Source: an uncultured Phycisphaerales bacterium (GTDB lineage Bacteria > Planctomycetota > Phycisphaerae > Tepidisphaerales > Tepidisphaeraceae). Taken from it: a stretch of DNA of 64,000 bases. Below, piece by piece: positions 48,649 through 56,835 of the stretch. A program made the translations under genes and the position numbers. How positions within the stretch are numbered: position 1 is the stretch's first letter; every line of letters starts with the position of its first letter. The notes under the pieces are model-generated. The model was not told the origin of the DNA. It saw nothing but the letters and a program-made list of their open reading frames with translations, and ran no database searches. Location: the NCBI GenBank assembly GCA_963755915.1, contig CAVWLP010000002.1:3648001-3712000 (forward strand), in the 5' to 3' direction.

Positions 48649-48891
48649 TTAGTCCCCAATCATCAAATAGCTGGCGGGCACCTTGAGTGATTTTGCCGCT
48701 CTTACCAGCAAATGGGTCGGAATCGTCTGCGTCTTCCGATTGAGAAAATTGAGCAGGCTTGAACGACCCCAGCCGATATCCCCAGCCAGTGTAGCGATGG
48801 TGGAGCCCCGATGTGAATCTTCAATGAGATCGCGGATGCGCTCCGCGATTCCGTCGTAGAAAGCAAGGTCCTCTTTGCTTAGCCGTCCCAA
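48649..48891 (-). CDS. Small XRE-type HTH protein, paralog of the N-terminus of 43981..44967
   Basis: EDLAFYDGIAERI...IGWGRSSLLNFLNR versus EDVAFYDCVAERI...IGWNRPSLCNFINR; start uncertain. Confidence 0.6.
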   Translation of the reverse strand: MGRLSKEDLAFYDGIAERIRDLIEDSHRGSTIATLAGDIGWGRSSLLNFLNRKTQTIPTHLLVRAAKSLKVPASYLMIGD

Positions 48892-49113
48892 GATGCCGTC
48901 TTGATTGAAGTGACTTCTTATGCACTGAAACGATTGGGCACCCAAGCCGGACATGGCGAATGTTGGCAATCCCAACTCGATTCCTTCCCACCTGTTCACT
49001 CTTTTTTCGATCGCAATCTCAATGGCAAGCAACCGAACAAGAATTGTTGTCAATGCCATCATTTTTGAAGGTCGGCAAGCTTGGTCGCTCAATCCGAACT
49101 ATGGTTGATTGAA

Positions 49114-49602
49114 ATGACATCGGACATATTCAGCTTTATCAGCGCTTCCACGGCGCTGATCGCCACGATCGCGGGCCCATATGTGGCGGTGAAAACCGCC
49201 CGCAACCAGATCAAAGCCAGCCTGATTTCCACGAACCGCGCAAGATGGATCGAATCGATGCGAGATCTCGTGGCTTGCGCCATTTCACATTGGACCGGGG
49301 TCATGTATTTGCGCGCAGGCTTGCATAACCGCGACGCCGTTACAATTGCCACAAACTCGGCCCTTTTAAGCCGCATTGAAGGCGGACTTCTAACCAACAG
49401 CAAAATCCGTCTCATGCTCAATCCGAACGAAGCGGAAAGCCAACACTTAATGAAAACCCTCGACGCCGTCGTCGCCTGCCTGCGCTCGGCAGAGGATCAG
49501 GCCACCGTTGAATCGCAGATGCGCGCTCATCTCGACGAAGTCATTCGAATTAGTCAGGCGATTCTCAAAGTCGAATGGATTCGCGTTAAGCTGGGAGATT
49601 GA
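49114..49602 (+). CDS. Hypothetical protein with N-terminal TM
   Basis: Hydrophobic N-terminus followed by a helical body (NRARWIESMRDL, IRLMLNPNE). Confidence 0.55.
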   Translation: MTSDIFSFISASTALIATIAGPYVAVKTARNQIKASLISTNRARWIESMRDLVACAISHWTGVMYLRAGLHNRDAVTIATNSALLSRIEGGLLTNSKIRLMLNPNEAESQHLMKTLDAVVACLRSAEDQATVESQMRAHLDEVIRISQAILKVEWIRVKLGD

Positions 49603-49747
49603 GCCAGTCCCCGATCCCGCTTCCCGGTCAGCGTAACACACATCAAACCCCACCCGAAAAACCGGGCATTCGGCGGCCGATTATGATAAATACTTGCTGG
49701 GCGCTGGGTCGCCGGTTGGCGCACCCTAAAAACGCTAGGAGCAGGCG

Positions 49748-50767
49748 ATGGTTACGAGCGGCAGTTCTGCAACGTCTAAACCCCCCTATCAAGGGAAGCC
49801 CGTTGGGTTTACGCTTGTAGAGCTTCTGGTTGTTATTGGAATCATTGCGATTCTTCTCGGCCTGTTGCTGCCCGTTATTGCCAAGGCCCGCGAGCAGGCC
49901 AACCAGGTCAAATGCATGGCCAATTTGCGCACAATTGGACACGCCATAGCGATGTATGCCTCAGACAACGGCGGTTATCTGCCGTTTGGATTTGTACAGG
50001 TCGGAGAGACCATCGGAAATGGCGGCGTCACCTACTCCGATGTCAGCAATCCAACCGGTGACAAGTCAGATTACGTAGACTGGACCATCCTCATCACCCA
50101 CGAGCTTAGCTCAATAGCGGGCACCAGCAGTCTGAACAACCAGACGACCAGCTCCACCAATCCGGGAGTTCGAGGCTATTTCATTTGTCCCACCGCGCCC
50201 GTCTCGACAGTGAACTGCGATTTTTCAGACTACTCCTGTCACCCCAGGCTTATGCCGGATTTGGGAACGCCCGATTACCTGAATCAGGTCCCCGTCAGCA
50301 GGACCAACCCCGGCTATCTCCCTTATCTAAAGCCCTACAAGCTGGCGCAAATACAACGATCGACCGAAATCGCATTGATCTTCGATGCCTCGGTGGCGTC
50401 TCAATACGGGGCCTTTAACGTCGCGTCGGTTGCCTTTGCGATTGATAATGGAAACGTCTACAACACCCATACAACCTGTCTTTCGGATCAATACGGTTCA
50501 ACGTACAACTCCCAGATGATCGATTCCGGCCAGCCGATTGACCCCTACGCCGGGAAAGAGCCGGCAACGCCCGTCCCCAGCGACTTGAACGCCGACACCA
50601 CCGACAACTGGGGAAACATCCGCTTTCGGCATCTCGGAGAAACCGCGGCCAACGCCCTGATGGTCGACGGCCACGTCGAGGTGTTCCATTTCAATCCGCA
50701 TGAGCCCGCGACGAGCATGACCGACCTGTTGCGAAAGAACATCAACGTCAACCTTTCGACCCCGTAA
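49748..50767 (+). CDS. Prepilin-type N-methylation / H-X9-DG (DUF1559-like) protein
   Basis: [49 protein letters not shown]. Confidence 0.9.
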
Positions 50768-50912
50768 CATGCTCCCGCCGGTTAGCGAATCCCGGCAAGC
50801 GTCTTTCGCTACAAAACCAGCCCATCGGTAGAAATCTCGATTTTTCGCTTGATTTTTCGAATTTATGTGAAACAATTCATGGTCTCAAGACGTTTAGTCG
50901 ATGGAGAAAGCT

Positions 50913-50996
50913 ATGCGGCAACATTGGTATCCAGAAAATATGAGTGAGACAGCCAAACGATGCGGGTCATTCCGCCTCGATTTGGCCAATTTATAA
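50913..50996 (+). CDS. Putative leader peptide MRQHWYPENMSETAKRCGSFRLDLANL
   Basis: GGAG at 50903-50906, ATG 50913, TAA 50994-50996; followed directly by alternative hairpins and the tRNA array. Confidence 0.5.
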   Translation: MRQHWYPENMSETAKRCGSFRLDLANL

Positions 50997-51095
50997 ACTC
51001 CCTGCCGCGTCGGCCGGGAGTTCTTCCCGGCTGAAAGTAATCAACACTTAAATCCGGGACGCAATTGGAAATACAGCCGGGCGCTTGTTGCGTCC
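50996..51095 (+). promoter_or_regulatory. Attenuator-like set of mutually exclusive hairpins
   Basis: 50996-51007/51011-51022 competes with 51011-51020/51024-51033; CCCGGCTG (51026) also matches CAGCCGGG (51074), which lies inside GGACGCAA/TTGCGTCC (51057/51088). Confidence 0.5.
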
Positions 51096-51151
51096 TGCTG
51101 CCAAACAAGAGAGGTCCGCGGAATAACCCCGCGCTGATCCAATCTCGGTTC

Positions 51152-51226
51152 GCGCCTGTAGCTCAATTGGCAAGCAGCGCCGCGCTTACATCGCGGAGGT
51201 TGCTGGTTCAAGTCCAGCCTGGCGCA
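51152..51226 (+). tRNA. tRNA-Val(TAC)
   Basis: Anticodon arm CCGCG-CT TAC AT-CGCGG; T loop TTCAAGT; one acceptor mismatch. Confidence 0.85.
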
Positions 51227-51271
51227 TGAAAGGACAAAGGCCGTGAAAACGCCTGGAAAATCAGGCCTTTT

Positions 51272-51343
51272 ACGCTGTTAGCTCAGAGGCAGAGCACCCG
51301 CCCGATAAGCGGGAGGCCGGAGAGTCGAGACCTCCACGGCGTA
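51272..51343 (+). tRNA. tRNA-Ile(GAT), degenerate T arm
   Basis: CCCGC-CC GAT AA-GCGGG; T arm reads GGAGAGTCGAGACCTCC. Confidence 0.7.
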
Positions 51344-51354
51344 CTGAAAATCTC

Positions 51355-51429
51355 GCACTGGTAGCTCAATCGGATCAGAGCTCCGGTCTACGAAACCGGA
51401 GGTTGAAGGTTCGAATCCTTCCCAGTGCA
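51355..51429 (+). tRNA. tRNA-Arg(ACG)
   Basis: CCGGT-CT ACG AA-ACCGG; canonical arms. Confidence 0.95.
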
Positions 51430-51488
51430 CTGGTGTCGTAAGTGATTGTATCTAATTACGATGTATTTGTGGTTGCTGATAAGGTTTC

Positions 51489-51560
51489 GCACTCGTAGCT
51501 CAACGGCGGAGCCACCGGCTCTTAACCGGTGGGTTGCAGGTTCGAATCCTGCCGGGTGCA
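51489..51560 (+). tRNA. tRNA-Lys(CTT)
   Basis: ACCGG-CT CTT AA-CCGGT. Confidence 0.93.
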
Positions 51561-51614
51561 TGAAAGGAGAATGTCAGATGAATCGGTTCAGGAGAAAACG
51601 GTGCAAATAATTCC

Positions 51615-51689
51615 GCACCGGTAGCTCAACGGAATCAGAGCAACCCTCTTCTAAAGGGTCGGCTGGGGGTTCGAATCCCTCCCGGTGCA
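51615..51689 (+). tRNA. tRNA-Arg(TCT)
   Basis: ACCCT-CT TCT AA-AGGGT. Confidence 0.93.
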
Positions 51690-51701
51690 TGCGGACAGTG
51701 C

Positions 51702-51773
51702 GCACCGGTAGCTCAATGGCAGAGCCGCCGCCTTTTAAGCGGAACCATGCAGGTTCGATTCCTGCCCGGTGCA
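51702..51773 (+). tRNA. tRNA-Lys(TTT)
   Basis: CCGC-CT TTT AA-GCGG. Confidence 0.9.
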
Positions 51774-51789
51774 TGAAGAGAAAAGTTTC

Positions 51790-51864
51790 GGTTCAGTAGC
51801 CCAACCGGCAGAGGCGCCTGACTCAGAATCAGACTTAGTGCAGGTTCGAATCCTGCCTGGACCA
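51790..51864 (+). tRNA. tRNA-Leu(CAG), short variable loop
   Basis: CTGA-CT CAG AA-TCAG; only about 6 nt before the T arm. Confidence 0.85.
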
Positions 51865-51873
51865 TAGAAAAAA

Positions 51874-52111
51874 GTTGCGGTAGCTCAATCGGATTGGCTC
51901 TGTCTCATGAATCATCGCGCGGCCAGACGAAGTGGATTTCGTCCTCGGGCAAGGAGCGACGACGAGCAGTATTGAACGGAAATACGGCGAGGAGGAGCGA
52001 CGCCGGCCGAGGACGAAAGACACGAGTCGGGCCCGCGAGGATTCATGAGACAGAGCCGAGAGCGCGGCTCTCCGAAGGCCGAGGTTGAAGGTTCGATCCC
52101 TTCCCGCGACG
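51874..52111 (+). tRNA. tRNA-Arg(CCG) with ~164-nt hairpin inserted in the D loop
   Basis: GTTGCGG-TA-GCTC-AATCGGAT [51895-52058] A-GAGC-G-CGGCT-CT CCG AA-GGCCG-AGGTT-GAAGG TTCGATC CCTTC-CCGCGAC-G. Confidence 0.85.
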
Positions 52112-52126
52112 TGAAAGAAAAACATT

Positions 52127-52198
52127 GGGCCCGTCGTCTAACGGGAAGACTCCTGGCCTGCAACCAGGAAATGAGGGTTCGATTCCCTCCGGCGTCCA
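52127..52198 (+). tRNA. tRNA-Ala(TGC)
   Basis: CCTGG-CC TGC AA-CCAGG; G3:U70 present; one bulged C in the acceptor stem. Confidence 0.85.
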
Positions 52199-52205
52199 TC
52201 GGATT

Positions 52206-52279
52206 GCTTCGGTAGCCCAACCGGAAGAGGCGCGTGATCGAGGTTCACGTCAGTGCAGGTTCGAGTCCTGCCCGGAGCA
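52206..52279 (+). tRNA. tRNA-Leu(GAG), short variable loop
   Basis: CGTGA-TC GAG GT-TCACG; variable loop TCAGT. Confidence 0.85.
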
Positions 52280-52292
52280 CTGAAAGCGTTTC

Positions 52293-52366
52293 GCCGCGGT
52301 AGCCCAATGGCAGAGGCGGTGGTCTCAAGAACCGTTTGTGTGTGGGTTCAAATCCCACCCGCGGCA
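52293..52366 (+). tRNA. tRNA-Leu(CAA), short variable loop
   Basis: GTGGT-CT CAA GA-ACCGT; variable loop about 6 nt. Confidence 0.85.
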
Positions 52367-52426
52367 TGAAAGGAGAATCCGATGAGTAGCGGCTCATCAC
52401 AAAAAAATAGCGAAGACTCCGATTGC

Positions 52427-52510
52427 GGAGGGTTGGCCGAACGGTAAGGCATCCGTCTCGAAAACGGACATGGCGCACGCGCCTTGGGGGTTCGAATCCC
52501 TCACCCTCCT
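52427..52510 (+). tRNA. tRNA-Ser(CGA)
   Basis: TCCGT-CT CGA AA-ACGGA; long variable arm. Confidence 0.9.
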
Positions 52511-52563
52511 TCCGACTCGCGCAGAGCGCTCGGCCTGCCGTGAGCGAGCGCAGCGAGTCGAAC

Positions 52564-52652
52564 GGAGGGTTGGCAGAGTGGCCTAACGCGCCGGGTTGCT
52601 AACTCGGAAGGCTTTGAAAAGGGCCTCGAAGGTTCGAATCCTTCACCCTCCG
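52564..52652 (+). tRNA. tRNA-Ser(GCT)
   Basis: CCGGG-TT GCT AA-CTCGG; long variable arm. Confidence 0.92.
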
Positions 52653-52719
52653 CTGGATTTTGGGCGGTACGAAAATGGTTCGTCCCGCGAAGTGTTCTTT
52701 GACAATCAGGTGGCGTATT

Positions 52720-52792
52720 GCCGTCATAGCTCAGCGGAATGAGCGTCCGGTTGTCAACCGGAAGGCCATGGGTTCAACCCCCATTGACGGCG
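52720..52792 (+). tRNA. tRNA-Asp(GTC)
   Basis: TCCGG-TT GTC AA-CCGGA. Confidence 0.88.
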
Positions 52793-52797
52793 TTTTT

Positions 52798-52868
52798 GTG
52801 GATTCAGCTCCAAGGTAGAGCGGGGGCCTGAAGAGCCCCAGGGCTTGGTTCGATTCCAGGAGTCCACA
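52798..52868 (+). tRNA. tRNA-Phe(GAA)
   Basis: GGGGC-CT GAA GA-GCCCC. Confidence 0.88.
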
Positions 52869-52878
52869 TTGAAGCGAT

Positions 52879-52949
52879 GCGTCGGTAGTTCAGCGGTCGA
52901 ACACCGCTATGCCAATGCGGAGGCCCGGGTTCTATTCCCGGCCGGCGCA
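52879..52949 (+). tRNA. tRNA-Gly(GCC)
   Basis: CCGC-TAT GCC AAT-GCGG; T loop TTCTATT. Confidence 0.8.
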
Positions 52950-52962
52950 CTGAGATTGACGA

Positions 52963-53034
52963 GCAGTGATAACTCAGCCGGGAGAGTGCCGGTCTTCCAA
53001 ACCGGAGACGTGGGTTCGAATCCCGCTCACTGCA
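52963..53034 (+). tRNA. tRNA-Gly(TCC)
   Basis: CCGGT-CT TCC AA-ACCGG. Confidence 0.9.
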
Positions 53035-53049
53035 TAATGCGAGTTTGAT

Positions 53050-53122
53050 GCCGTGGTAGCTCAAAGGGTAGAGCGGTCGTCTCGTAAACGACAGATCGCC
53101 GGTTCGATCCCGGCCCGCGGCT
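53050..53122 (+). tRNA. tRNA-Thr(CGT)
   Basis: GTCGT-CT CGT AA-ACGAC. Confidence 0.93.
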
Positions 53123-53136
53123 CTTAGGGATATTCT

Positions 53137-53210
53137 GGGTGCGTAGCTCAATGGCGGAGCAGGGGCCTCATAAGCCCAAGGTTGTTGGTTCGAATCCAAC
53201 CGTTCACCCA
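53137..53210 (+). tRNA. tRNA-Met or Ile2 (CAT)
   Basis: GGGC-CT CAT AA-GCCC; two extra nt in the acceptor 3' strand. Confidence 0.8.
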
Positions 53211-53227
53211 TTTTTAGAAACTTTTAT

Positions 53228-53300
53228 ACAGGGATAGTTCAATCGGTAGAACGCTCGGCTCTGAACCGGGTTGCTGGAGGTTCGAATCCTTCTCCCTGAA
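53228..53300 (+). tRNA. tRNA-Gln(CTG)
   Basis: CTCGG-CT CTG AA-CCGGG; unpaired 1:72. Confidence 0.88.
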
Positions 53301-53301
53301 C

Positions 53302-53374
53302 TGAGCCGTAGTTCAATCGGTAGCAATGCCGGTCTTTGAATCCGGCGATCGTGGTTCGAATCCACGCGGCTCAA
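53302..53374 (+). tRNA. tRNA-Gln(TTG)
   Basis: CCGG-TCT TTG AAT-CCGG; U1:A72. Confidence 0.85.
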
Positions 53375-53384
53375 ATACCTTAAT

Positions 53385-53458
53385 ACCTTCGTGGTGGAAT
53401 TGGTACCACACTCGGTTGTTACCCGATGAGATTGCAGGTTCGAATCCTGCCGAAGGTG
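53385..53458 (+). tRNA. tRNA-Asn(GTT)
   Basis: TCGG-TT GTT AC-CCGA; G73. Confidence 0.85.
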
Positions 53459-53460
53459 TT

Positions 53461-53570
53461 AGCGGAGCGAGACGCTCCGCTAGAAGGTAGAAAGTAGAGA
53501 GTAGAAAGTAGACTGAAATCCCGTCTTCCCTACTTTGTACTTTCTACTCTCAACTTTCTCGCGCAGCGCC
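53461..53570. repeat. Palindromic intergenic element with AGTAGA-type repeats
   Basis: AGCGGAGCG-AGA-CGCTCCGCT, then purine-rich arm 53482-53511 complementary to pyrimidine arm 53530-53559; right end matches 28270-28289 in reverse complement. Confidence 0.6.
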
Positions 53571-53642
53571 GCTCTCGTCGTCTAATGGTCAGGATAACCG
53601 GCCTTCAACCGGAGAGTGTGGGTTCGATTCCCTCCGGGAGCA
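53571..53642 (+). tRNA. tRNA-Glu(TTC)
   Basis: CCGG-CC TTC AA-CCGG; D arm GTCT AATGGTC AGGAT. Confidence 0.82.
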
Positions 53643-53656
53643 CTGCAAGTTCAATT

Positions 53657-53730
53657 CAGCGTGTGGCGAAGCTTGGCATCGCGCGTGCCTCGGGCGCACG
53701 AGATCGAAGGTTCGAATCCTTCCACGCTGA
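53657..53730 (+). tRNA. tRNA-Pro(CGG)
   Basis: CGTGC-CT CGG GC-GCACG; C1:G72, A73. Confidence 0.93.
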
Positions 53731-53740
53731 CTGTTTTAGC

Positions 53741-53825
53741 GCGTAGGTCGCATAACTGGCATTGCAGCGGGCTGTAACCCCGCCGACCCAACGGGTTTTT
53801 GGGGGTTCAAATCCCTCCCTACGCA
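53741..53825 (+). tRNA. tRNA-Tyr(GTA)
   Basis: GCGGG-CT GTA AC-CCCGC; long variable arm. Confidence 0.92.
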
Positions 53826-53846
53826 TTGCGGCCAGAGGCCGCGAAC

Positions 53847-53919
53847 GCGCCGGCTGTTCCAGCGGTGGAACGCCCGCCTCCAAATCGGGAAACGGCAGGT
53901 TCGATCCCTGCCCGGCGCT
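53847..53919 (+). tRNA. tRNA-Trp(CCA)
   Basis: CCCG-CCT CCA AAT-CGGG; atypical positions 8-9 and discriminator. Confidence 0.78.
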
Positions 53920-53929
53920 GAAACTTTTT

Positions 53930-54001
53930 GAGGATGTGGCCGAATGGCAAGGCGCGGGTCTGCAAAGCCTGCTGATGCTGGTTCGAATCCAGTCATCCTC
54001 T
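53930..54001 (+). tRNA. tRNA-Cys(GCA)
   Basis: CGGGT-CT GCA AA-GCCTG; U73. Confidence 0.9.
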
Positions 54002-54003
54002 TT

Positions 54004-54078
54004 GTGGCCGTAGCTCAACTGGATCAGAGCACCGGGATGTGGCCCCGGTCGTTGTGAGTTCAAATCTCACCGGTCACC
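54004..54078 (+). tRNA. tRNA-His(GTG), no encoded G-1
   Basis: CCGGG-AT GTG GC-CCCGG; C73; T at position -1. Confidence 0.9.
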
Positions 54079-54124
54079 CTGAAAAAATACGCCCCCTGTT
54101 GTCGGTTTGTGAAAGGAGTTTGAG

Positions 54125-54385
54125 ATGACGCGTGCAACGCAATTTGACGTTTTGCCGGCCGATGTCGGCGCCGCAAGCGTTGCGGTGATTCACGTTCGGT
54201 TTGCCGGACAAAGCTTTGACGTTCCGCTGGCGAGCCTGGATGTCGGCGTCCAAAGCGCTGACGGCGCCATCAGGGCAGCCGTGGCCAACTGGCTGAGAGT
54301 GTCGCCGGCCCGTCTGGAGGCCTATGTGATCGACCGCCATGCCAACGGCAATCTGACGATTCGTCCCGAAGCGGTTTTCGGATGA
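54125..54385 (+). CDS. Small Gly-terminated protein, candidate ubiquitin/ThiS-like modifier
   Basis: AAGGAG RBS; 86 aa; strand-strand-helix-strand pattern (VIHVRFAGQSFDVPL...IRAAVANWL...NLTIRPEAVFG-stop); ThiF gene in the same unit. Confidence 0.7.
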   Translation: MTRATQFDVLPADVGAASVAVIHVRFAGQSFDVPLASLDVGVQSADGAIRAAVANWLRVSPARLEAYVIDRHANGNLTIRPEAVFG

Positions 54386-54397
54386 ATCGTGTTGCCG

Positions 54398-54564
54398 TGC
54401 CGCGGCCGGGACGCCGGGATCGCACCCAACGCCAGAAGCTTACAAACAAGGTTGGCACGGCGGGCAACCGCTGTGCCAGGGGTGCGAATCCCCCCAGAGG
54501 TCCTGGTTAGGACCGCAACAGATGCTTTTGTGACTCGTGCGATCGCGGCGTCCCGGCCGCGGCA
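54398..54564 (+). ncRNA. Y-RNA-like ncRNA unit 1
   Basis: Long closing stem TGCCGCGGCCGGGACGCCG..GATCGCAC / GTGCGATC..CGGCGTCCCGGCCGCGGCA; CCAACG-N4-AAGC-TTACAAAC ... GCTT-TTGTGACTC; T-arm-like GGGG TGCGAAT CCCC. Confidence 0.75.
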
Positions 54565-54589
54565 AAATTCAGGAGTTTTATGGATCGAG

Positions 54590-54772
54590 ATCGGCCGCCT
54601 GCGAATTGCGGCCCGCGCCCAACGATTGGAGCATACAAACTGGTTGCTTGTGGGGATCATTTTCCCGCAATGAAGGTTCGAATCCTTCCACCCCGTCTTT
54701 GAAGAACTGTGCGGGGTGCGAAAATATTTGCTCCCGCAACTTGCGCGAACCGCAATTCGCCGGCGATCCGAT
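54590..54772 (+). ncRNA. Y-RNA-like ncRNA unit 2
   Basis: Stem GCGAATTGCGG / CCGCAATTCGC; CCAACG-N4-GAGC-ATACAAAC ... GCTC-CCGCAACTT; T arm GAAGG TTCGAAT CCTTC followed by closed acceptor-like stem CACCCCG/CGGGGTG. Confidence 0.78.
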
Positions 54773-54805
54773 TGGAACTTAATCACGGAGACGCCGCCAA
54801 AACAT

Positions 54806-54969
54806 TCTGCAGTACACGCCGTACCCAACGGCGCGAGCATACAAACGTTGCTAACGTAGAGGTTACGGGTTCGAGTCCCGTCAGGCCAGCTTTCAATCAT
54901 TCGGGCCTGTAGCTCAATGGTAGAGCGCTAAAAAGTGGCTCATGCGACTTGTATGGCGTGTTCTGCGGA
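54806..54969 (+). ncRNA. Y-RNA-like (YrlA-architecture) ncRNA unit 3
   Basis: Closing stem and shared motif; T arm ACGGG TTCGAGT CCCGT, closed acceptor CAGGCC..GGCCTG, TA, D arm GCTC AATGGTA GAGC (T arm before D arm). Confidence 0.85.
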
Positions 54970-54987
54970 TTTTATGAAAGGAAGAGA

Positions 54988-55163
54988 TCGATTCGCCGAT
55001 GCCGCGCCTGCACCCAACGGCAGGAGCATACAAACTTGCGGGTTCGAATCCCGCCATTTGCGAATGCAAATGACGTCCATTTGGAAGGACACCTGACTCA
55101 CAATCAGGCGTTTAACAACGCACAGCTCGTGTGACTTGTGCGGGCGCGGCGCCGGTGAATCGA
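54988..55163 (+). ncRNA. Y-RNA-like ncRNA unit 4 containing a complete permuted cloverleaf (anticodon-like CAC)
   Basis: Closing stem and shared motif; T arm GCGGG TTCGAAT CCCGC, acceptor CATTTGC-GAAT-GCAAATG, D arm GTCC ATTTGGAA GGAC, anticodon arm CCTGA-CT CAC AA-TCAGG. Confidence 0.85.
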
Positions 55164-55185
55164 CTTGACGGAAAGGAGCAGCACC

Positions 55186-56835
55186 ATGACGAACATGAAC
55201 GCACACCTCACGACCGAACAGGACGCACGTCTCCGGCTGCTGAACACGCTGCTGACGACGCCGCACCGCAAGCTCCAGAAAGTTCACCCGGTGCATGAAG
55301 AAATCGCGGCCAACGATCCGCGCTTCTACGTGCGCCTCGCTTCCTGGTACTTCGACCACGGCGACGTTCGCGACCACAAGGAAATGTTCGTGGTTTCGCT
55401 GGTTTTGAGCGATTTCGAAGGACACCGCGACGTTGGATTGGCCCTGCTGCGCCAGCTCCCGCCGTACGAAGTGGGGCGGGTGCTGGACTTCATCAACGGC
55501 CGCAAGACAACCCGTAAGGTGATCGTGCGCACTCGCAAGGCGCGCAAGGACCGCGCGGCTGCGAAGGCTCAGCCGGGCCTGATCAATCGAATCGCGCGCC
55601 TGGTGACGGGAAACGCCGCGGAATCGGCGGAAGCCGGGCCGACCGAAGCAGCGCCGGCGCCGGAAATCAAGCTGGTGACGGAAACCTTCGGGCTCTTCCG
55701 CAACCCGCCGCGCTCGCTACGGACGGAAATCGTCCGCTACCTGCGTGAACGCGAAGCCGACGGCGAATGGTTCGACAGCACCGTGCTCGTTGCCCGCAAG
55801 GCGATCAAGCGGCTGTACGCGCTGAACCACGTGAAGCCGGGTGATCGCGCCCAGCGGATCCTCTTCGACGAAGATCCGCCGGCCGGCAGCCGGATTTACG
55901 CTTTGCGCAAGCTCGCCGCCGCAACCACGCCGGCGGAGCAGGCGCAGGCGATTATCGACAACGCGATTCCGTATCGAGTCGCCCAGTCGGTCGTCAAGCA
56001 GATGACGCCGACGATTCTGCTGGCCCTGATCGAGCGGATGAGCCCTCAGGAACTGATTAACAACGTCGCCTCGCTGACGAAGCGCGGCGCGATGGACAAT
56101 CCGGACCTGAAGGCGTTGATCGACCAGAAGCTTGAGCAGGCCCAAACGGCCCAGCGGGTTAGCGGGCTCAAGGCGCAGAAGGCGATTGAGTCGGCCGGCG
56201 CAACGGTGTCGCCGGACGTGAAGGCGAAGCTCGAAAGCGTCGCCGACGCGCAGATCAAGGCTAAGGGCCGGATCGACCGTCCCACGGCGCTGCTCATCGA
56301 CAAGTCGGGCTCGATGTCGCTGGCGATTGAACTCGGCAAGCGCATCGGCGCCCTGATTTCCGCGATCTGCCGCGCGGAGCTCTTCGTCTACGCGTTCGAC
56401 ACGATGGCTTACCCCATCGAGCGCGGCGGCGACGACCTTGCTTCGTGGGAAAAGGCGCTGGTTGGCATCAAGGCCGGCGGCGGAACGAGCTGCGGAGTCG
56501 CCGTCGAGGCGATGCGCATCCGCAAGCAGTACGTCGAGCAGATCATTCTCGTCACCGACGAGGGTGAAAACACGGCGCCGCTGTTTGTGCCCACGCTGCA
56601 GAAGTACCGGGAAACGGTCAAGGCCGTTCCCAACATCTGCATCGTTCGCGTCCCGCGCAGCGTGACGACGGTTGAGTCGAATTGCCGCGCGGCTGGTTTG
56701 ATGGTCGATGTGTTCCAGTTCGCCGGCGACTACTACTCGCTGCCGAACCTGGCGCCGCTCCTGAGCAAGCCGAGCAAGCTCGAATTGCTCATGGAGATCC
56801 TGGAGTACCCTCTGCCGAAGCGGAGGTCGGCGTAA
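55186..56835 (+). CDS. Ro60/TROVE-like helical protein with C-terminal vWA domain
   Basis: AAAGGAG RBS; basic helical N-terminal region (DPRFYVRLASWY, MSPQELINNVASL); MIDAS residues LLIDKSGSM, GGTS, ILVTDEGEN; adjacent to Y-like RNAs. Confidence 0.75.
   Translation: MTNMNAHLTTEQDARLRLLNTLLTTPHRKLQKVHPVHEEIAANDPRFYVRLASWYFDHGDVRDHKEMFVVSLVLSDFEGHRDVGLALLRQLPPYEVGRVLDFINGRKTTRKVIVRTRKARKDRAAAKAQPGLINRIARLVTGNAAESAEAGPTEAAPAPEIKLVTETFGLFRNPPRSLRTEIVRYLREREADGEWFDSTVLVARKAIKRLYALNHVKPGDRAQRILFDEDPPAGSRIYALRKLAAATTPAEQAQAIIDNAIPYRVAQSVVKQMTPTILLALIERMSPQELINNVASLTKRGAMDNPDLKALIDQKLEQAQTAQRVSGLKAQKAIESAGATVSPDVKAKLESVADAQIKAKGRIDRPTALLIDKSGSMSLAIELGKRIGALISAICRAELFVYAFDTMAYPIERGGDDLASWEKALVGIKAGGGTSCGVAVEAMRIRKQYVEQIILVTDEGENTAPLFVPTLQKYRETVKAVPNICIVRVPRSVTTVESNCRAAGLMVDVFQFAGDYYSLPNLAPLLSKPSKLELLMEILEYPLPKRRSA

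Follow-up and report, generated by a model that had tools for sequence, protein, structure and literature searches.

A predicted ribosome-transit sensor with an amino-acid-diverse leader upstream of a spare tRNA array in an uncultured Phycisphaerales bacterium

Amino-acid operon attenuators, such as those of the trp, his, leu, thr and ilv operons, place a short open reading frame (ORF) with codons matched to the operon ahead of RNA segments that pair as 1:2, 2:3 or 3:4, and the position of the ribosome selects the fold. In pyrBI-type attenuation, a closely following ribosome prevents a terminator hairpin from forming, the timing being provided by pausing of the polymerase for UTP. The regulation of bacterial tRNA genes is generally thought of as promoter control, exerted through ppGpp and growth rate. 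In this study, a stretch of 64,000 nucleotides from an uncultured Phycisphaerales bacterium (contig CAVWLP010000002.1, positions 3,648,001 to 3,712,000; hereafter the window) was analyzed, in which an array of 27 tRNA genes for all 20 amino acids (51152-54079, + strand) is preceded by a short leader ORF whose stop codon abuts an RNA switch of four segments. We describe the anatomy of this element and its conservation, the manner in which leaders track the tRNAs behind them, the fold preferences in an energy model and the standing of the array as an extra set. The unit is very probably a ribosome-transit sensor that gates a spare tRNA operon; its translation is predicted, and we infer the ribosome footprint and the output.

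Planctomycetes are named among the phyla with long tRNA arrays in the available part of one survey (PMC8421152), and arrays in Planctomycetes are mentioned, without reference to regulation, in the available text of another paper (PMC4758250). For the trn operon of Anabaena, the accessible sections of two papers describe a ribbon-helix-helix repressor, TrcR, whose sites are direct repeats that cover the start and the -10 element (PMC8421152, PMC10272220). The present array resembles the long arrays, including that of Anabaena as portrayed in those sections, in being long, supernumerary and, as it appears, patchily distributed, in having one predicted promoter and in its proposed tie to the state of translation (PMC8421152, PMC10272220). 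However, a leader that is predicted to be translated and an RNA switch stand here in place of the repressor. The terms 'leader' and 'attenuat' have zero occurrences in the available portions of PMC8421152 and PMC10272220. Literature searches, which did not cover the supplementary tables of the array surveys (these may list planctomycete arrays), returned no paper describing a leader peptide before tRNA genes. No printed description was found of a ribosome-based switch for tRNA genes such as the one proposed here, in which leader-peptide control would reach across the entire amino-acid alphabet.

The locus shares with the trp-type attenuators a matched short ORF and mutually exclusive pairings. 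However, the products here are tRNA genes rather than enzymes, and the leaders use up to all 20 amino acids, whereas those of the trp type carry a run of one or a few. In addition, the stop codon precedes segment 1, whereas in the trp type it lies between segments 1 and 2; it would therefore be a terminating, and not a stalled, ribosome that masks segment 1. Most of the matched codons are found 4-15 codons ahead of the stop codon, and no U tract follows hairpin 3. The likeness to pyrBI lies in a read-through that would need a timely ribosome at a hairpin starting at the end of the ORF, and in a pyrimidine tail after hairpin 1; the differences are that timing would be set by decoding speed at many codons and that two further segments make the switch a three-way one. 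T-box riboswitches likewise sense tRNA charging for translation-related genes, but they bind uncharged tRNA and have no ORF, and a search of positions 49500-55500 against Rfam at permissive thresholds (E up to 1) yielded no T-box and no cis-regulatory family covering the leader.

The leader and the switch in the window

The leader ORF (50913-50996, + strand) runs from an ATG at 50913 to a TAA at 50994-50996 and is nested in a listed frame of 31 codons. It is preceded by a Shine-Dalgarno sequence, GGAG (50903-50906, + strand), 6 bases 5' of the ATG, and most other leaders of the family have a purine-rich stretch at an equal distance from the start. The 27 residues of the peptide comprise 18 amino-acid types, the first nine residues are all distinct, and Val and Ile are absent; on each of these points, and on the Shine-Dalgarno sequence, a preliminary description of the window was reproduced from the sequence. 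The chance of at least 18 types in 27 codons, a question raised in that description, depends on the null: it is 0.0074 for independent residues at proteome composition and 0.0055 for segments cut from real long ORFs, and among ORFs of the same length in the window's genome 1 of 1014 reaches this diversity. The diversity of a single leader is modest evidence alone; the comparative, family-wide signal carries the case.

Segment 1 (50996-51006) begins at the last base of the stop codon and forms the 5' arm of hairpin 1. Segment 2 (51012-51022) serves both as the 3' arm of hairpin 1 and as the 5' arm of hairpin 2, segment 3 (51024-51031) as the 3' arm of hairpin 2 and the 5' arm of hairpin 3, and segment 4 (51054-51060) as the 3' arm of hairpin 3. 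All lie on the + strand and were delimited by folding and alignment, and each of the seven core pairs of hairpin 3 is kept in 47 to 63 of the 63 homologous places described below. The calculated energies are -17.6 kcal/mol for hairpin 1 (50996-51022; z -4.4), -16.4 kcal/mol for hairpin 2 (51011-51033; z -4.1) and -11.5 kcal/mol for hairpin 3 (51025-51059; z -2.45), with 0, 0 and 3 of 200 shuffles, respectively, being as stable. Because both use 51012-51020, hairpins 1 and 2 are mutually exclusive; hairpin 2 also excludes hairpin 3, so that the pairings are 1:2, 2:3 and 3:4. The loop of hairpin 3 contains a small, variable A/U-rich hairpin (51035-51049, + strand, from folding), and across loci the spacer of hairpin 3 has a mean z of -1.44 relative to shuffles, with 38 of 61 values below -1.

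The first two competing hairpins had already been proposed in the preliminary description, and the folding z-scores and shared bases bear them out. It had, however, placed the alternative partner of the 3' arm at 51074, within a stem at 51057-51095. The conserved partner of this arm (51024-51030) is instead 51054-51060, and the segment at 51074 and its stem are altered in the closest relative and were not seen in the other loci examined.

In the energy model, hairpins 1 and 3 form side by side in a free 73-base stretch of the window (-29.1 kcal/mol, z -4.2), and the same stretch minus segment 1 adopts hairpin 2 (-22.4 kcal/mol). The family was modelled with 61 of its 63 sequences, two rows having been dropped for alignment gaps. 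Free RNA formed hairpin 1 in 59, hairpin 2 in none and hairpin 3 in 61. When segment 1 was masked, hairpin 2 was obtained in 40 and hairpin 3 in 18 (hairpin 1 was not counted); when the RNA was in addition cut before segment 4, which makes hairpin 3 impossible, all 61 formed hairpin 2 (hairpin 1 again not being counted). Complementarity over the 63 sequences is kept in 99.2% of cells for hairpin 1, 99.4% for hairpin 2 and 84.7% for hairpin 3, for which 10 pairs were counted, and the loops and spacers of the switch are free to vary in length and sequence among loci.

The array behind the switch is a long tRNA array in the sense of the surveys: its 27 genes, 26 called by ARAGORN and one by the Rfam tRNA model, are dense within 2.9 kb and supernumerary. 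Since 57 further, dispersed tRNAs in the genome include every anticodon of the array and are only 0.44-0.84 alike to the array copies, the array is a supernumerary and divergent set. Its first gene is tRNA-Val(TAC) (51152-51226, + strand, ARAGORN). The second, at 51272-51343 on the same strand, was missed by ARAGORN and found by the Rfam tRNA model at 51.2 bits, and its identity as tRNA-Ile rests on a GAT anticodon and on an Ile(gat) homologue in locus L003. The preliminary description had noted that the two amino acids missing from the leader correspond to the first two tRNAs, which agrees with these assignments.

Contigs from four soil or leaf-litter RNA libraries, belonging to four studies, match the leader at 95-99% likeness. 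One of 405 bases spans 50904-51307, and thereby the ORF, the switch, tRNA-Val and the start of tRNA-Ile; the three others span 50905-51074, 50935-51166 and 50952-51161. A transcription start of the array downstream of the ORF, which the preliminary description named as a finding that would count against it, does not agree with these contigs, which join the ORF to the first tRNAs. No contig of the four RNA runs covers 50780-50903, an absence that proves nothing. For two contigs, each of a different study, the first matched positions are 50904 and 50905, with no loose ends, and one contig has 51074 as its last; at most, this is a weak hint of RNA ends at these positions.

A family of leaders that track their tRNAs

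The elements share one layout, consisting of a promoter, a small 5' hairpin, a Shine-Dalgarno sequence, an ORF of 21-43 codons, a stop codon abutting the four-segment switch, and tRNAs. The closest relative has the whole leader at 94% identity, and more distant relatives share only the switch. Four homologous loci are laid out identically, with a Shine-Dalgarno sequence, an ATG and a short ORF that encodes a differing peptide and stops at the foot of segment 1 of the same switch. An exact 14-base core was found in 44 of 141 genomes of the window's order (58 matches versus 15 for a reversed control), although 7 of 30 fetched core loci were chance matches within coding sequence. A covariance model built on 27 elements detected 63 places, at 26-88 bits, in 49 of the 141 genomes, with 2-4 places in each of 10 genomes. 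In 150 other genomes of the phylum it gave only matches of 21-25 bits, in 8 genomes, and the five that were fetched have no tRNA nearby. An exact 19-base core occurs in 83 contigs, 38 of them titled Tepidisphaeraceae, Tepidisphaerales or Phycisphaerales. Application of the covariance model to 44 of the 83 (42 with other titles and two of the 38) gave one strong match (L195) and eight weak ones, and the two titled contigs that were included (L227 and L229) gave no match. The strong match lies on a 2.7-kb contig binned to an alphaproteobacterial metagenome-assembled genome and comprises an element at 61.9 bits and nine tRNAs in the usual order; either mis-binning or transfer accounts for it.

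A leader ORF is present at all 63 places, with a length of 21-43 codons (median 30) and a peptide sequence that drifts. The gap between the stop codon and segment 1 is 0 bases in 45 places, 1 in 11, 2 in 3 and 3 in 2, and in the remaining 2 the stop codon lies inside segment 1. The other two frames are open across the same span in only 26 of 126 cases, the base after the stop codon is C in 51 of the 63, and length differences between leaders of one likeness group amount to whole codons (for example 30 versus 34 in L080 and L081). A T-rich stretch, -35 and -10 elements, a small palindrome and a purine-rich Shine-Dalgarno sequence are common to most loci, and the N-terminal part of many leaders has a recognizable motif kept across genera. 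The expectation voiced in the preliminary description, that short diverse ORFs would recur upstream of homologous arrays, was thus borne out, the ORF, Shine-Dalgarno sequence, stop position and switch segments being kept at 63 of 63 places.

The diversity of the leaders is high as a family: 19 of the 63 contain 19-20 amino-acid types and 7 contain all 20, whereas 16 of 8144 ORFs of 27-35 codons in the genome reach 19-20. Cys, Met, His and Trp show a 1.7-3.2 fold enrichment and Gly and Val a reduction by half. To list the tRNAs that follow each leader, 5.8 kb was fetched per place, the arrays ranging from 0 to 29 genes; a tRNA is recorded as absent if ARAGORN, which overlooks some genes, did not report it. 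Leaders and arrays correlate in their numbers of amino-acid types (Spearman 0.58, p 3.9e-6, over 55 untruncated loci), the mean being 19.0 leader types where the array covers 16-20 amino acids and 15.4 where it covers 1-3. For the 28 arrays that are untruncated and have 1-10 amino-acid types, a fraction of 0.317 of the leader residues has a downstream tRNA, versus 0.224 +/- 0.012 after permutation (z 7.5; 0 of 100000 permutations reach the observed value), and dereplication to 26 loci leaves z at 7.1. Furthermore, in 21 large arrays the leader uses an amino acid in 308 of the 323 cases with a tRNA for it in the array and in 57 of the 76 without a detected one; the cells in which both are absent number 19, versus 8.7 +/- 2.4 expected, and none of 20000 permutations gave as many. 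As a general tendency, an amino acid is missing from the leader if the array has no tRNA for it or only a decayed one. The absence of Val and Ile from the leader in the window fits this tendency, although imperfectly, since tRNA-Val is detected there.

The clearest cases are arrays that have been split. In genome G073, the main array has the usual order minus two Gln tRNAs and its leader is without Gln, whereas the leaders of its two nearest relatives have Gln; a second copy of the element elsewhere in the same genome precedes exactly Gln(CTG) and Gln(TTG), and its leader has 9 Gln in 29 residues. The same Gln split is found in G095 with an unrelated leader family, the main leader being without Gln and that of the Gln cluster having 10 Gln in 21 residues, including a run of seven. 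Other split units, for Thr/Tyr/Trp, Ala/Met/Asn and Arg/Lys/Glu/Pro, track in a like manner. These within-genome cases rule out lineage composition as the cause of the tracking. As a separate observation, in locus L113 (G051:C9) a second copy of leader and switch cuts the array into two units (element copies at about 291 and 4566), and the six tRNAs behind the second leader serve amino acids in which this leader is enriched.

The leaders match the supply of the operon at the level of the amino acid and not at that of codon and anticodon. Within codon families of more than two codons, 364 of 572 leader codons are readable by tRNAs of the array, versus 368.5 expected from genomic usage. Arg is an exception, with 135 of 153 leader codons readable by the array versus 112.6 expected, and CGA accounts for 67 of 217 leader Arg codons versus 13% in the long ORFs of the genome. 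Synonymous codons appear spread out in the leaders, and their codons are rarer than those in long ORFs (relative adaptiveness 0.70 versus 0.81). What would be sensed is the amino acid and not the array's own anticodons.

As judged by comparison of these loci, the leader is real and conserved, and it is coupled in function to the array. An unlikely alternative is that the short ORF is a small gene in its own right, or that it belongs to a structured leader which stabilizes or processes the precursor, so that the hairpins would act as a terminator or a processing platform and nothing would be sensed. The N-terminal motif kept across genera could be explained in this way, as could the nearness of segment 4 to the RNase P site (tRNA-Val starts 5-6 bases past segment 4 in two loci) and the lack of both covariation and a canonical terminator. 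However, a small gene or processing platform would leave unexplained why leader composition follows the downstream set of tRNAs and changes reciprocally when arrays split, why in 63 of 63 places the stop codon keeps to the foot of segment 1, and why three mutually exclusive pairings are kept up.

Proposed mechanism and direction of control

We propose that a strong promoter-like element produces a transcript that would open with a well-initiated ORF of about 30 codons, carrying at least one codon for nearly every amino acid that has a tRNA downstream and stopping at the foot of segment 1. A ribosome at the stop codon would cover segment 1, leaving segment 2 free to pair with segment 3, so that hairpins 1 and 3 would be prevented; a ribosome delayed at an earlier codon, or no ribosome, would allow hairpins 1 and 3 to form. 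A ribosome with a stop codon in its A site would be expected to cover about 9-10 bases beyond it, as judged from toeprint distances. This predicted footprint matches the length of segment 1, which suggests that the signal is timely arrival at the stop codon and not the position of a stall. Hairpins 1 and 3 would represent the blocking state, through a pause or termination before the first tRNA, and hairpin 2 would represent read-through. The array would be transcribed only if every listed amino acid is decoded without delay and would stay off under a shortage of any one of them or an inhibition of translation. The outcome would be an AND gate for all amino acids, with extra tRNA made only when it can be charged.

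Given the sensor, the odds that arrival acts as the 'on' signal are slightly better than even, and the full explanation, sensor and sign together, has a probability of roughly 0.47. With hairpins 1 and 3 as the block and hairpin 2 as the anti-block, the retention of all four segments is explained. The conservation of segment 4 fits this sign, as a terminator consisting of hairpin 2 only would not need segment 4. In the family, T accounts for 45% and C for 51% of the 8 bases that follow hairpin 1, and the bases that follow hairpin 2 are A-rich; the tail after the core arm of hairpin 3 contains 31% A, 14% C, 31% G and 24% T, with only 2-3 U some bases past segment 4. The pyrimidine or partly U-rich tails after hairpins 1 and 3 fit arrival as 'on' somewhat better. 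The position of the matched residues is also relevant. Their enrichment is 1.6-1.9 fold over the interval from 4 to 15 codons ahead of the stop codon, 1.44 fold in the last 3 codons and 1.13 fold beyond 20, and the whole ORF lies upstream of segment 1 rather than having regulatory codons in or next to it. Residues 4-15 codons before the stop codon are too far upstream for a stalled ribosome to mask segment 1. Their position, together with the missing anticodon match, fits arrival as 'on'.

The same sensor may instead work with the opposite sign, which we regard as possible but somewhat doubtful. Hairpins 1 and 3, adopted upon a delay of the ribosome, would then make up the permissive fold, and prompt arrival would lead to hairpin 2 with segments 1 and 4 free and to shut-off, for example via a termination factor or an unrecognized terminator; spare tRNAs and, in some genomes, a spare EF-Tu would be induced by a shortage of any listed aminoacyl-tRNA or by inhibition of ribosomes. 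Such homeostatic logic is that of known leader-peptide attenuators, it would suit the redundant, divergent set of tRNAs in the window, the divergent EF-Tu genes within or after arrays at 4 places and the Gln-only tRNA clusters headed by Gln-rich leaders, and the CGA codon favoured by the leaders (67/217 versus 13%) is read only by the most retained tRNA of the array, Arg(ACG). In the accessible accounts, inhibitors of translation likewise turn on an otherwise silent array in Anabaena, where the repressor TrcR mediates the effect (PMC8421152, PMC10272220). However, the tail after hairpin 2 is rich in A and not in U, and the composition of the leader ORFs does not support a Rho loading site, which in tnaC-like control would be C-rich, G-poor and unstructured next to the leader stop (mean (C-G)/length 0.006, with C exceeding G in 34 of 63); the short tracts rich in C that segments 1 and 3 provide are taken up by pairing in the default fold. 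Furthermore, the leader codons are not enriched for those readable by the array, so that induction could not relieve about a third of the stalls, and the conserved segment 4 would be unexplained unless hairpin 3 were protective.

A number of points weigh against the sensor with arrival as 'on'. As to the sign, every leader-peptide attenuator known to us switches on when the ribosome stalls. The Gln-rich leaders before Gln tRNAs resemble a homeostatic loop, and arrays with a divergent copy of EF-Tu resemble a backup kit. The Anabaena array, the one long tRNA array known to have been studied, is induced by translational stress (PMC8421152, PMC10272220). As to the switch, the covarying hairpins that the preliminary description suggested looking for upstream of homologous arrays were not found: complementarity is kept, but no helix covaries, with shuffles matching the observed measures in 103-488 of 500 cases and, for hairpin 2, in 500 of 500. 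This is because the segments are almost invariant, and the pairings therefore rest on kept complementarity and not on compensatory change. In addition, no hairpin of the switch has a proper U tract, by sequence or by the terminator scan, which found 5 terminator-like sites versus 5.9 expected; the preliminary description had likewise seen no U-tract terminator. This is weak evidence, because canonical terminators are rare in this genome (following 23-38 of 1648 long ORFs at a T threshold of 6 or 5, versus 1-13 inside ORFs). As to the family, 12 of the 63 leaders contain only 8-14 amino-acid types, and for six elements no tRNA was detected over the following 4.0-5.5 kb, where ordinary genes lie (for example those for a GNAT acetyltransferase, a histidine kinase and aconitase); these six are provisionally taken as relics. 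Finally, related genomes are non-independent samples, which holds for all of the family counts, and contigs assembled from RNA libraries may derive from contaminating or other DNA and reveal neither ends nor levels.

The preliminary description had proposed a general sensor that opens the array upon depletion of tRNAs. Its core is retained, in that a leader predicted to be translated is coupled to mutually exclusive hairpins and tied to the array. Opening on depletion is not retained: no result fixes the sign, and the anatomy fits the opposite somewhat better. In a bolder form, which we advance tentatively, the near-pangram leader would gate, with 20 inputs, a mobile and spare kit for translation (a complete set of tRNAs, to which some genomes add an EF-Tu), a single transit reading the decoding speed for each amino acid into a three-way switch, with the list of inputs being rewritten when the set of tRNAs splits or shrinks; in the boldest version the sign would be opposite to that of all known leader attenuators.

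Upstream elements, surroundings and implications

A promoter-like element upstream of the leader was recognized only through comparison of the loci by eye; a consensus promoter scan gave no match on the + strand at the leader. It consists of a -35-like hexamer (50849-50854) and a -10-like hexamer (50871-50876) on the + strand, with a T-rich stretch just 5', and in most of the 63 loci its position and sequence are kept ahead of the leader. A small hairpin or palindrome, P0 (50889-50899, + strand, by eye), separates the -10 element from the Shine-Dalgarno sequence, the stem letters of which vary among loci yet remain complementary around a conserved loop. It may be an RNA hairpin or a protein operator.

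The palindrome bears on a very improbable explanation, namely control at the DNA level by a protein bound to 50889-50899, with the leader being secondary and the candidate protein being the product of a divergent helix-turn-helix gene upstream (48649-49092). A palindrome with a conserved centre is found near the expected transcript start in most loci, and the accessible descriptions of the Anabaena array give a repressor site over the -10 element and the start (PMC8421152, PMC10272220). The ORF at 48649-49092 (- strand, 147 residues), which lies upstream of the leader and is divergent from it, has a weak match to HTH_19, but at 23.3 bits this is below the Pfam cut-off of 30.2. Moreover, such control would not account for the ORF, the position of its stop codon, the switch or the tracking, and it could act alongside the leader rather than in its place.

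Other features of the surroundings are given as separate observations. An ORF of unknown function (49081-49602, + strand) upstream of the leader also precedes it in the closest relative, from which a DUF1559 gene present in the window (49748-50767) is absent. At 51109-51141 (+ strand), comparison by eye with the 3' half of a tRNA in L003 and with an intact tRNA-Val in L004 points to a possible relic, the 3' half of an older first tRNA. Within the array, at the place of tRNA-Arg(CCG) in relatives, a tRNA-like gene (51876-52107) that is not called by ARAGORN has an insert of about 170 bases after the D-arm, with flanks forming 16-base inverted repeats; in the closest relative (L002, about 1320-1500) a similar insert splits a tRNA-Ile gene. 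An ORF of 86 codons (54127-54387) with a good Shine-Dalgarno sequence starts 48 bases past the last tRNA of the array with no terminator between, and may be co-transcribed with the array. Just past the array, at 54420-55060, a module consisting of a conserved motif and a hairpin resembling a tRNA T-arm is repeated four times. A match there to YrlA, the Y RNA-like family of Rfam (54838-54958), reaches 50.7 bits, below the threshold of 69, and no Ro/Rsr, RtcB or RNA-repair families were found in the ORFs neighbouring the Y-RNA-like matches. Divergent EF-Tu genes lie directly after or within leader-headed arrays in L124 (G127:C5), L142 (G060:C25), L134 (G094:C25) and L135 (G101:C7); they are 62-74% identical to each other, and one follows a single tRNA-Val behind a leader. 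The genome of the window has only one EF-Tu match, far from the array.

If the proposed sensor is correct, a leader read by the ribosome would add direct feedback or feed-forward from decoding to tRNA supply, and the near-pangram leaders would be the first multivalent attenuator to span the whole amino-acid alphabet. With the boldest sign, they would provide an amino-acid-specific, ppGpp-independent control of stringent type over stable RNA genes. The split arrays with rewritten leaders, the Gln-only units and the EF-Tu units are natural variants that serve as mutants, and the element itself is a compact part of about 190 bases that might report the general status of translation. The sensor would, if confirmed, also bear on the purpose of supernumerary tRNA arrays.

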